Shown: piece by piece, positions 57,004 through 59,975 of the stretch | Layout of the letters: each line of letters starts with the position of its first letter | Numbering within the stretch: position 1 is the first letter of the stretch | Assembly: GCA_043744715.1 (NCBI GenBank) | Contig: JAYTUE010000088.1 | Location: 4,462 to 68,461, forward strand | Reading direction: 5' to 3' | Length of the DNA: 64,000 bases | From: Verrucomicrobiota bacterium | GTDB taxonomy: Bacteria > Verrucomicrobiota > Verrucomicrobiia > Limisphaerales > CANJSG01 | Position numbers and translations under genes: made by a program | The notes under the pieces: generated by a model | What the model was told of the DNA's origin: nothing | The model's input: the letters and a program-made list of their open reading frames with translations, nothing else | The model's database searches: none

Positions 57004-57014
57004 GGCACAAAAAT

Positions 57015-57203
57015 ATGTCGAAACAGAACCGCCCATCCAAGCCGCGTTTGCAGTCGACCATCGTTGCAATGAAGCAGATCCGAGAGATCCAAAGCCTGCT
57101 CGTTCAACTGGAGAGCATGGAAAAACAATCACAAACAGCCGGCCCGCCCTCCGCGGCGGCTTCAGGAACGATTTCCCGATCAACCGCGCAGCGAAGCACC
57201 TGA
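57015..57203 (+). CDS. Candidate 62-aa small ORF between sdhC and sdhA
   Basis: The ATG at 57015 gives [43 protein letters not shown].... It fills the sdhC-sdhA gap exactly, with its stop 2 nt before the sdhA ATG. There is no family match I can recognise and no obvious SD, so coding status is uncertain. Confidence 0.3.
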
Positions 57204-57205
57204 TC

Positions 57206-59167
57206 ATGGCCACTCTCAATTCCAACATCCCCGCCGGCCCGCTCGCCTCGAAGTGGGAGAAGCACAAGTTCAGCTCCAAGCTGATCAACCCGGCCAACAA
57301 GCGGAAATACAAGGTCATCGTCGTCGGGGCCGGCCTCGCCGGGGCCAGCGCCTCGGCCACGCTCGCCGAGCTGGGCTACGAGGTGCACAACTTCGTCTTC
57401 CACGATTCCCCACGCCGCGCCCATTCCGTGGCCGCGCAGGGCGGCATCAACGCCGCGAAGAACTACCAGAACGACGGCGACTCCGTTCACCGCCTTTTCT
57501 ACGACACGATCAAGGGCGGCGACTACCGCGCTCGTGAATCCAACGTCCATCGTCTCGCCGAAGTTTCGGTCAACATCATCGACCAATGCGCCGCCCAAGG
57601 CGTGCCCTTCGCCCGCGAATACGGCGGCCTGCTTGACAACCGCTCCTTCGGCGGCGCGCAGGTCTCCCGCACGTTCTACGCGCGCGGCCAGACCGGCCAG
57701 CAGCTCCTGCTCGGCGCTTATTCCGCGTTGAACAAGATGATCGGTGCCGGCGCGGTGAAGTCCTACACGCACGCCGAGATGCTCGACCTCGTGGTCGTGG
57801 ACGGACACGCCAAGGGCATCATCGTCCGCAACCTCCAGAACGGCGAAATCACCCGGCACAGCGCCGACGCCGTCGTGCTGGCCACGGGCGGCTTCGGCAA
57901 CGTCTACAACCTTTCCACCTATGCGCGCGGCTCGAACGTCACGGCCAGTTGGCGCGCCTACAAGCGCGGCGCGACCTTCGCCAATCCCTGCTACACGCAG
58001 ATCCATCCGACGTGCATCCCCGTCTCCGGCGACTACCAGTCGAAGCTGACCCTGATGTCGGAATCGCTCCGCAACGACGGCCGCATCTGGGTGCCGAAGA
58101 AGAAAGAAGATTGCGCGAAGCCACCCGCCGACATCGCCGAGGGGGACCGCGACTACTACTTGGAGCGGATGTATTCCGCCTTCGGCAACCTCGCCCCGCG
58201 CGACATCGCCAGCCGCGCCGCCAAGTATGTCTGCGACGAAGGCCGCGGCGTTGGCCCCACCGGCTTGGGCGTGTATCTGGATTTCGAGGAGTCGATCAAG
58301 CGCCTCGGCGAGGACAAGGTGCGCGAGCGCTACGGCAACCTCTTCGCGATGTATCACGAGATCACGAACGAGGACGCCTACAAGACGCCCATGCGGATTT
58401 ATCCCGCCGTGCATTACACGATGGGCGGCCTCTGGGTGGACTACAACCTGATGAGCAACATCCCCGGCCTCTTCGTGCTGGGCGAAGCGAACTTCTCCGA
58501 CCACGGCGCGAACCGCCTCGGCGCGAGCGCGCTCATGCAGGGCCTGAGCGACGGCTACTTCGTGCTCCCAGCGACCATTTCCACCTACCTCGCCACGGTG
58601 AAGCCCGGCAATCGTCCGACGACCGACAAGGGCGAGTTCAAAGAAGCCGAGGAGAACGTCCGGGGCTTCATCCAACGCGTCACCGCCAGCAGCGGCAAAC
58701 GCACGCCCGACAGCTTCCACAAGCAGCTCGGCAAGCTCATGTGGGAACACTGCGGCATGGCCCGCACGGCGGCCGGCTTGCAGAAAGGCATCCAGCTCAT
58801 CGGCGAACTGCGCGAGGAATACCGGACCAACGTGAAGGTCCTCGGCGAAGCCGGCGGCTGGAACCAGGGCTTGGAGAAGGCCGCCCGCGTGGCCGACTTC
58901 ATCGAGCTGGGCGAGCTGATGTGCCGCGACGCGCTGATGCGCGAGGAGAGCTGCGGCGGCCATTTCCGCGAGGAATACCAATACACCGCCGCCGACAAGG
59001 AAGTGCAGGACGGCATCGTCAACGCCGGCGACGTGAAGCGCCGCGACGACCAGTTCGCCTTCGTGGCCGCTTGGGAATACGCCGGTGCCCCCGACAAGGC
59101 TCCGATCCTCAACAAGGAAGACCTCAAGTATGAGGAAGTGAAGATGAGCACGCGGTCTTACAAGTGA
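57206..59167 (+). CDS. sdhA: Succinate dehydrogenase/fumarate reductase flavoprotein subunit
   Basis: [16 protein letters not shown] motif. [14 protein letters not shown] (FAD-linking His). HYTMGG and ESCGGHFR blocks. Confidence 0.93.
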
Positions 59168-59180
59168 GCAGGCAGCGAGG

Positions 59181-59975
59181 ATGTCACAAACTGTGATCTC
59201 CTTGGAAACCGTCATGAGCACCGACTCCAACCTGATCCCCGCCGAGCGCATCGAGCGCCGCATCCTGCTCGTGCGGGGGCAGAAGGTGCTGCTGGATTTC
59301 CAGTTGGCGGAACTCTACGAGGTGCCAACCAAGGCCATCAACCAAGTGGTGAACCGGAACCTCGAACGCTTCTCCGAGGACTTCATGTTCCAGCTCACGG
59401 AAGCGGAGATGCTCGAAGCCGCCCTGACTCCTGGCATCGCCGTTCCGTGGCCCGTCCGGCTGTTTAGCTGCGGAGCAGCGGCAGACAGTAGCCCGCGGCG
59501 TGAGCCGTGGGTTGGCGGCAATTGGGATCAAGCCCCGGCAGGGGCGGCAGATCCGGCAGGCGCTTCTGTCGCCCCTGCCGGGGCTTGTCCATCACTCGGC
59601 CATCGGACCCACGGCTCACGCCGTGGGCTACTATCTTCCGCACCTCCGGCGCTGGAGACGGAATGGCACGCGGGAACATGGCCGCTGGCCTTCACCGAGC
59701 ACGGCGTGGCCTTGCTCTCCGGGCTGCTTCACGGCCAGCACGTTGCCCGGACCACCGTTTCCATTCTCCGAGTCTTCGCCCAGTTGACGAAGCAGGAGCA
59801 GTTGGCTGCGGACGCTCAAGACGCCATGAACGAAATCCGCACTTGGCTGGATCGGGATCGTTCCAGCGTCTTTGAAACGCCGCGTTCGCCCAGGTTTTTG
59901 CCCACAGTCCAGCGCCGCGACTGCGCTCCGCGCTTTCAATCCCACTTCGCAACTCGCAAATCGAAACTCTCATGA
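59181..59975 (+). CDS. ORF6N (KilA-N-related DNA-binding) domain protein, split by an in-frame repeat insertion, inserted between sdhA and sdhB
   Basis: [53 protein letters not shown] and [16 protein letters not shown]...ILRVFAQL are the two conserved halves of ORF6N. About 100 unrelated Ala/Pro/Gly-rich codons separate them. The stop overlaps the sdhB ATG (ATGA). An alternative start is the ATG at 59214. Confidence 0.7.
59487..59632. repeat. 146-nt nested-palindrome (REPIN/MITE-like) element inside the ORF6N gene
   Basis: The outer 26-nt arms are AGTAGCCCGCGGCGTGAGCCGTGGGT (59487..59512) and ACCCACGGCTCACGCCGTGGGCTACT (59607..59632), with 1 mismatch. The inner arms are a perfect 17 nt: AAGCCCCGGCAGGGGCG (59530..59546) and CGCCCCTGCCGGGGCTT (59570..59586). 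Confidence 0.85.

Follow-up and report, generated by a model that had tools for sequence, protein, structure and literature searches.

Between sdhA and sdhB of the succinate dehydrogenase (SDH) operon, Verrucomicrobiota appear to keep a long-lived slot for small accessory genes, and in the genome analysed here the ORF6N-domain gene in this slot seems to be a hitch-hiker that was invaded in frame by a REPIN, a pair of inverted repetitive extragenic palindromic (REP) units; we give this reading a probability of roughly 0.6. The operon lies in a 64,000-nucleotide (nt) stretch of a Verrucomicrobiota bacterium genome (assembly GCA_043744715.1, contig JAYTUE010000088.1, positions 4,462 to 68,461), called the window below. 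Coordinates without a label are those of the window, and related loci and homologous proteins are designated by numbers preceded by L and P, respectively. The operon contains the following features.

56164-57003, plus strand: sdhC, cytochrome b558-type membrane subunit (TIGR02046, 155 bits)
57015-57203, plus strand: 62-codon open reading frame (ORF), coding status uncertain, within a lineage-specific insertion of ~200 nt at the sdhC-sdhA junction
57206-59167, plus strand: sdhA, flavoprotein subunit (NF005749, 1114 bits)
59176-59205, plus strand: conserved hairpin just 3' of the sdhA stop, ~10 nt 5' of the conserved ORF6N start
59214-59975, plus strand: ORF6N-domain gene, 253 amino acids (aa), or 264 aa from the ATG at 59181
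59466-59653, no strand: REPIN-type palindrome inside the ORF6N gene (inverted repeats and Rfam RF01687)
59972-60748, plus strand: sdhB, iron-sulfur subunit (NF005746, 424 bits)

The core genes form a type B succinate:quinone oxidoreductase operon, with a single b558-type cytochrome subunit, a flavoprotein and an Fe-S subunit in the order sdhC-sdhA-sdhB, all above their NCBIfam cut-offs. An earlier note on this DNA had described this layout with two extra ORFs, and its coordinates were borne out by the ORF map and the sequence, as was the overlap of the ORF6N TGA (59973-59975) with the sdhB ATG (59972-59974) in the motif ATGA. The 62-codon ORF also fills the sdhC-sdhA gap as that note had claimed, beginning 11 nt after the sdhC stop and ending 2 nt before the sdhA ATG. 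Neither extra ORF matches any SDH subunit or assembly family in Pfam or NCBIfam, the larger one matching ORF6N alone. A promoter and terminator scan of 55600-61000 returned no promoter-like site, and terminator-like sites were below shuffle expectation.

The order sdhA-ORF6N-sdhB recurs in at least 20 other Verrucomicrobiota loci, as located by contig look-ups and by scanning genomes with SdhA (L001-L004, L007, L008, L013, L014, L018-L020, L025, L031, L032, L085-L095, L216 and L218). SdhA identity across these loci ranges from 74 to 96%, and their hosts include a member of Limisphaerales (L019), one of Opitutales (L020), an Opitutaceae isolate (L025, Opitutaceae bacterium EW11) and Nibricoccus (L031). 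Ten of the 11 ORF6N homologues with readable contigs occupy the sdhA-sdhB slot, the exception being L217. Pairs of intact ORF6N genes show ratios of nonsynonymous to synonymous divergence (dN/dS) of 0.09-0.50, and sdhA and sdhB mostly of 0.07-0.19, with 0.28 for the sdhB pair of the window and L001. Occupancy is patchy: L005 and L006, whose SdhA proteins are 94-96% identical to that of the window, lack the ORF6N gene and have 25 nt from sdhA to sdhB, spacings of 7-38 nt are found in L005, L006, L010, L011 and L015-L017, and gaps are short in all non-verrucomicrobial loci but one. L005 (JBIIUN010000406.1), with an SdhA 96% identical to the window's, is labelled Candidatus Kapaibacterium, probably through a binning error. 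The earlier note had regarded the ORF6N gene as a foreign insert; comparison with relatives upholds it as an accessory gene and not an SDH component, but shows that it is not peculiar to this genome and recurs across Verrucomicrobiota. That note had also held that the same gene in all relatives, under purifying selection and with a known SDH assembly function, would count against its idea; relatives do carry the gene under purifying selection, but no SDH function is known for it, and L005 and L006 are without it.

The same gap holds unrelated small genes elsewhere, none of them mentioned in the earlier note, which suggests a long-lived, recombining cargo slot. Genes of the 23S_rRNA_IVP family (PF05635) lie between sdhA and sdhB in L022, L028, L033, L075 and L091, a HEPN gene in L052 (a Saprospiraceae contig), and a DUF6036 nucleotidyltransferase with a ~100-aa partner in L045 and L058. 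Additional genes stand 5' of ORF6N in L001 (with a weak SUKH-like match), L002 and L007, and cargo can be stacked, as in L091 (sdhA-IVP-ORF6N-sdhB). In L216 (GCA_038209745.1, 213-2227), the order is sdhA, an RDD gene, a truncated REPIN-bearing ORF6N gene that stops right after the REPIN, a 57-aa ORF, a second ORF6N gene and sdhB; the second copy is of the short type and looks degenerate, with substitutions at otherwise invariant residues. Since L033 carries a 23S_rRNA_IVP-family gene in its sdhC-sdhA gap (1299-1670, E 2e-8), the first operon junction is also able to hold cargo. PF05635 is unrelated to ORF6N and has no member in the window. Its genes resemble the proteins of 23S rRNA intervening sequences in being small, stand-alone and bracketed by inverted repeats within highly conserved, highly expressed units. 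The repeats around the cargo copies, which resemble the stems of rRNA intervening sequences, are located as follows.

L033, 3675-3713 and 4068-4118: AGTGAAGACTGAAAAATGAAAAAT upstream, with its near-exact reverse complement downstream
L091, 3544-3617, 3972-4003 and 4655-4680, and L028, 6421-6487 and 6839-6908: motifs GATTTACGA and TCGTAAATC

The ORF ending at 59975 matches Pfam ORF6N (PF10543) with E ~2e-22 and 79.7-79.9 bits against a cut-off of 27.8, so that a profile search upholds the domain assignment made from the sequence alone. The native match spans only profile positions 2-53 of 86 and is thus not a contiguous full-length domain, whereas intact relatives match positions 2-86. When the repeat-encoded residues are removed in silico, the match grows to positions 2-84 of 86 (86.7 bits), indicating that the domain of the window gene is split, not truncated. 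The interruption, overlooked in the earlier note, is a nested palindrome of ~190 nt with 47-nt outer arms that are 85% complementary and an inner hairpin whose 23-nt arms are 96% complementary (predicted RNA fold -192 kcal/mol, z = -10.8); weaker complementarity around it reaches about 59439-59669. Its two outer arms are inverted copies of the Rfam motif Acido-Lenti-1, matching the full model length on opposite strands with scores of 54.3 and 53.0 bits (gathering score, 37).

59466-59511, minus strand: left REP, Acido-Lenti-1 (RF01687)
59488-59491: GTAG tag
59529-59587: central hairpin (59 nt)
59608-59653, plus strand: right REP, Acido-Lenti-1 (RF01687)
59628-59631: CTAC tag

The palindrome therefore combines short GTAG-tagged hairpins with two units inverted around a spacer. 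Because Acido-Lenti-1 repeats flank IS200-type tyrosine transposase genes elsewhere, as described below, it is, as judged from its sequence, a REPIN, with its two GTAG-tagged REPs in inverted orientation. Comparison of the four orthologous palindromes (window, L001, L002 and L216) shows variation in the unpaired parts, but nearly all 76 predicted pairs are kept unchanged. A protein search returned the close relatives P0002-P0010 (70-80% identity), whose genes contain the same palindrome, and many intact proteins of 190-245 aa.

The REPIN leaves the reading frame open. In an AlphaFold2 model built with 62 homologues, both halves of the protein reach a predicted local distance difference test score (pLDDT) above 90, and residues 86-152 fall below 50; the REPIN is read as a loop of ~65 aa that is predicted to be disordered. 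A Foldseek search of this model against the PDB gave nothing below E = 2.7, so that a relation to the KilA-N/APSES fold was not confirmed, and a PDB sequence search with the intact homologue P0013 gave no meaningful match. Rickettsia palindromic elements, to which PMC3733652 refers, reportedly also sit in frame in protein genes (Ogata et al. 2000). The window REPIN resembles them as a palindromic repeat placed in frame in a conserved gene, read as an extra peptide and passed to descendants. It differs in repeat family and host phylum, in taking the place of a linker that varies naturally inside a domain, and in the strong divergence of the downstream half.

Acido-Lenti-1 behaves as a dispersed repeat well outside sdh operons. 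The unit is an 8-bp hairpin with GTAG in front; an exact 23-mer of it occurs in at least 120 metagenome stretches, minus/plus doublets 60-200 nt apart are present in 64 of the 120 stretches listed, and full-length doublets at ~75% identity are found in at least 12 loci with no sdh or ORF6N context. In five metagenome loci, inverted units bracket a Y1 transposase gene, with a minus-strand unit 45-75 nt 5' of the gene in all five and a plus-strand unit 55-70 nt 3' of it in four, the contig of L211 ending at that point.

L157, 4024-5042: unit-flanked Y1 transposase locus
L114, 1119-1716: unit-flanked Y1 transposase locus
L104, 8093-8684: unit-flanked Y1 transposase locus
L196, 888-1504: unit-flanked Y1 transposase locus
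L211, 542-1058: unit-flanked Y1 transposase locus

The transposase protein matches PF01797 (E 1e-23) and the NCBIfam IS200 model (66.8 bits). L157 has in addition seven tandem same-strand Acido-Lenti-1 copies 5' of the transposase gene, with a period of 72-88 nt. The hairpin unit, the doublets and the flanked transposase genes recall GTAG-tagged REPs, REPIN doublets and REP-associated tyrosine transposases (RAYTs), respectively (Bertels and Rainey 2011, PMC3116915; Di Nocera et al. 2013, PMC3733652), and GTAG-tagged REPs in Verrucomicrobia and inside ORFs, including in Opitutus terrae, have already been reported (PMC3733652). The likeness to known REPIN/RAYT systems extends to GTAG hairpin units, inverted pairs, dispersed copies and single-gene Y1 transposases between inverted units. 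Unlike known REPINs, the window doublet is long (~190 nt, with the 59-nt central hairpin); unlike RAYTs, the transposase scores as IS200 and reaches only 24 bits on the NCBIfam RAYT model, whose cut-off is 80; and, unlike known REPs, Acido-Lenti-1 is filed in Rfam as a small RNA (sRNA) candidate for Acidobacteria and Lentisphaerae. Other Rfam matches in the region (mir-207, mir-1538, sR35, ASdes and isrG) were far below their gathering scores and were taken as chance.

A second structured element lies between the sdhA stop and the ORF6N start, namely a hairpin with the core GTCACAAACTGTGAT (59183-59197), of the form TCACA-N3-TGTGA. It is present in most loci with ORF6N directly after sdhA (the window, L003, L004, L008, L013, L014, L085, L020 and L032), with compensatory changes in 9 of 12 predicted pairs, and missing from L001, L002 and L007, where another gene separates sdhA from ORF6N. 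The earlier note had the 264-codon ORF6N gene begin at 59181, an ATG inside this hairpin; the ORF and its end stand, but the start kept in all relatives is the ATG at 59214 (MSTDSN...). Since relatives with another gene 5' of ORF6N, and hence no hairpin, begin at the same Met, 59214 is likely to be the true start. For annotation, the gene is best called from there, and its ~65 odd central residues are best treated as repeat-derived.

Intact ORF6N genes also contain one to three perfect palindromes within the coding sequence, with the core TCACA(A)-N-(T)TGTGA and arms of up to 15 nt. They translate as xRSQ(I/V/T/F)VTx, lie on either side of the variable linker and have one more counterpart in the 5' untranslated region (UTR).

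L003, 3128-3252: coding palindromes
L004, 3196-3331: coding palindromes
L085, 4207-4331: coding palindromes
L091, 4208-4325: coding palindromes
L019, 6612-6700: coding palindromes
L032, 6687-6776: coding palindromes
L218, 2829-2855: coding palindromes
L217, 4195-4221: coding palindromes

Codon shuffles yield 0.04-0.1 such palindromes per gene. The outer arms covary even where the encoded residues differ (L..S, N..G, M..A), which suggests selection at the nucleic acid level. The core is also found in two faecal 'phage' ORF6N genes. The REPIN clade has lost every internal copy, the window keeping only the 5' UTR copy at 59183-59197.

These palindromes raise the question of whether ORF6N is a domesticated regulator, that is, a host transcription factor that binds TCACA-N3-TGTGA at its own 5' end and tunes sdhB or the operon with the tricarboxylic acid (TCA) cycle. 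Such a role would fit the conserved palindrome just upstream and its copies inside the gene, the predicted DNA-binding N-domain, and the conservation of the gene at one operon position in two classes, with dN/dS of 0.1-0.5. We nevertheless consider it distinctly unlikely: the gene is missing in very close relatives with an intact operon (L005 and L006), other lineages have unrelated cargo in its place or beside it, decayed or truncated copies exist (L216, P0008-P0010), and the family member L217 lies outside any sdh context. In addition, covariation of the outer arms is more in keeping with a structure than with an operator of fixed sequence.

Family matches point instead towards a hitch-hiker. 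The window protein matches PADLOC PDC-S05, a candidate defence family, with E 2.8e-34 (P0013, E 4e-55), and PHROG 4792, annotated 'anti-repressor', the latter over the N-domain only. The earlier note had framed the gene as a phage-type regulator; this framing is weak, as homologues occur in only 5 of 50,697 phage records and the flanking genes are sdhA and sdhB. As in other members of the ORF6N/KilA-N family, the N-domain scores far above its cut-off, and the 86-position domain is complete in intact relatives, which also show the usual C-terminal helix; unlike other family members, the window gene belongs to a core respiratory operon instead of a prophage or defence island, and its domain is interrupted. 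Given the PDC-S05 and anti-repressor PHROG matches, the near absence from phages and the lack of any SDH-family match, a selfish or defence-type hitch-hiker using an essential operon as a safe harbour seems more likely than an SDH factor.

The ORF6N genes show both descent with the operon and exchange. With the REPIN clade left out, distances for ORF6N are correlated with those for SdhA (r = 0.52, Mantel p = 0.0006). Synonymous divergence (dS) of ORF6N equals that of the flanks for L003-L004, L085-L091 and L004-L091, is similar to the flank values for the window and L002, and is two to three times that of the flanks for L004-L008, L003-L008, L013-L091, L031-L032 and L020-L025. These values suggest that some alleles co-diverged with the operon and that others are older than their flanks, implying replacement. 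Between the window and L001, dS forms a mosaic (0.74 in sdhA, ~0.2 in ORF6N and 0.12 in sdhB; window 57206-60748), which places a recombination breakpoint at or near the slot. No recombinase gene and no target-site duplication were seen.

The REPIN-bearing copy has diverged strongly. Its ORF6N core differs by 49% from that of L004, for an SdhA difference of only 4%, and among 1.84 billion representatives its C-half matches its own clade only, the next match having E 3e-6. Acquisition of the C-half from another ORF6N family by recombination was considered and rejected, as no closer donor was found among these representatives. The window, L001 and L002 genes are separated by in-frame indels only. 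Within the window clade, dN/dS is 0.27-0.67, with 0.38-0.47 in the N-half, 0.49-0.67 in the REPIN part, 0.27-0.53 in the C-half and 0.19-0.30 in the remaining part of the ORF6N domain. In our reading, these values reflect a burst of change after the arrival of the REPIN, followed by renewed constraint.

The same divergence, together with the split domain, the truncated versions in relatives and the conserved ATGA overlap, could also mean that the gene lost its function after the REPIN arrived and that its frame is kept only so that ribosomes reach ATGA and start sdhB. This is unlikely in our view, as the dN/dS values of the C-half and the remaining domain are near those of intact alleles and well below 1, and the conserved core AFTE.GVA.LS is kept. 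Moreover, coupling is not obligatory, since in P0007, whose tail is shifted, 15 nt separate the ORF from sdhB. The truncated relatives (P0008-P0010, L216) show that the ORF6N gene can also be lost.

At the other junction, the sdhC stop abuts the sdhA start in L002, L003 and L004, and the ~200-nt insertion is common only to the window and L008, its closest relative by SdhC (91% identity). The L008 ORF is collinear, also of 62 codons, 69% identical in amino acids and free of indels. Between the two, dN/dS is 0.48 in frame versus 0.81 and 1.09 in the other frames, and dS is 0.34, equal to that of the flanking genes. The 62-aa protein has no Pfam, NCBIfam, PHROG or PADLOC match and one further homologue among 5.8 billion proteins; the region is known only from the window, L008 and one JGI protein. 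It is a real lineage-specific insertion, with marginal support for coding. We also considered a duplicate of the sdhA 5' end, for which there are short similarities, but in the alignment with L008 the insert is collinear and lacks a clear donor. The earlier note described the C-terminal ~35 aa of SdhC and the small ORF as lower in GC, as if derived from an insertion. The dip is real but modest (GC 0.535-0.55 at 56900-57199 against ~0.62-0.67 on both sides, with another mild dip at 59000-59299), and only the last ~16 aa of SdhC (after ...NMPLGQ) differ from relatives, being shared with L008 only.

These GC dips, the anti-repressor match of ORF6N and the narrow distribution of the small-ORF region might suggest that both extra ORFs came lately from a phage or mobile element. 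We regard this as very improbable. The ORF6N synteny is common to loci whose SdhA proteins are only 74-78% identical, the dS of both ORFs is in line with their flanks (ORF6N against L002, the small ORF against L008), and homologues are nearly absent from phage records. The ORF map and Pfam search also found no integrase, transposase or tRNA at the insert sites. For ORF6N, a recent foreign origin is already contradicted by these comparisons.

Taken as a slot with a hitch-hiker, the observations would fit together as follows. The commonest occupant would be one ORF6N lineage with a predicted KilA-N-like DNA-binding N-domain and a long C-terminal helix, matching PDC-S05, which probably rides on transcription of the sdh operon with its own 5' hairpin. 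In the window clade, where the gene ends on the sdhB start codon, ribosomes may be handed over to sdhB. Cargo would pass on vertically, with losses in certain lineages and occasional swaps or stacking; swaps would most likely proceed by homologous recombination through the strongly conserved sdhA and sdhB on either side. In the window lineage, the REPIN would have taken the place, in frame, of a variable linker rich in palindromes at the centre of the ORF6N domain; the ORF would have stayed open, and its C-half would then have diverged sharply before coming under the present constraint. The 62-codon ORF is probably part of a second, younger insertion, likewise tightly spaced to both neighbours.

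Several points weigh against this account. Co-transcription and coupling are read from gene spacing alone, and coupling is not general to the slot, since ORF6N ends 35-63 nt before sdhB in Opitutales-type loci. Long residence under purifying selection also fits a host-beneficial role. The structural model is alignment-driven, and PDC-S05 is only a candidate family whose sole tested member, reported in one preprint to protect against phage, has a RhuM domain that Pfam does not find in the window protein. The 64-kb window has no RAYT gene and no second REPIN. Finally, the correlation of r = 0.52 is modest and the neighbour-joining trees are noisy, so that either vertical descent or replacement may predominate.

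REPs inside genes and ORF6N proteins are already known. We found no description of a recurrent sdh slot, of Acido-Lenti-1 as a transposase-associated REP, or of the ORF6N coding palindromes, and the literature on ORF6N, PF05635 and PDC-S05 yielded nothing on insertion into sdh operons. The orphan Rfam motif Acido-Lenti-1 gains a concrete identity: it behaves as a GTAG-tagged REP that brackets tyrosine transposase genes, and is not necessarily a stand-alone sRNA. The window gene also provides a clean natural case of a REPIN translated in frame within a protein domain, with relatives that carry and lack the insert available for comparison.

More broadly, non-respiratory cargo can persist over very long times in a core respiratory operon, and the conserved genes that flank it may act as recombination arms between species. 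A further, doubtful extension is that the sdhCAB junctions of Verrucomicrobiota are a dedicated landing pad for the interspecies exchange of small conflict-type genes, which may include ORF6N/PDC-S05, 23S_rRNA_IVP, HEPN and nucleotidyltransferase pairs. The TCACA-N-TGTGA palindromes of ORF6N genes, in the coding sequence (read as RSQIVTS) and in the 5' UTR, could then serve as operator, recombination or processing sites, and may have attracted the REPIN. If this were true, the palindrome array and the slot together would represent an as yet undescribed means by which accessory genes are maintained in essential operons.

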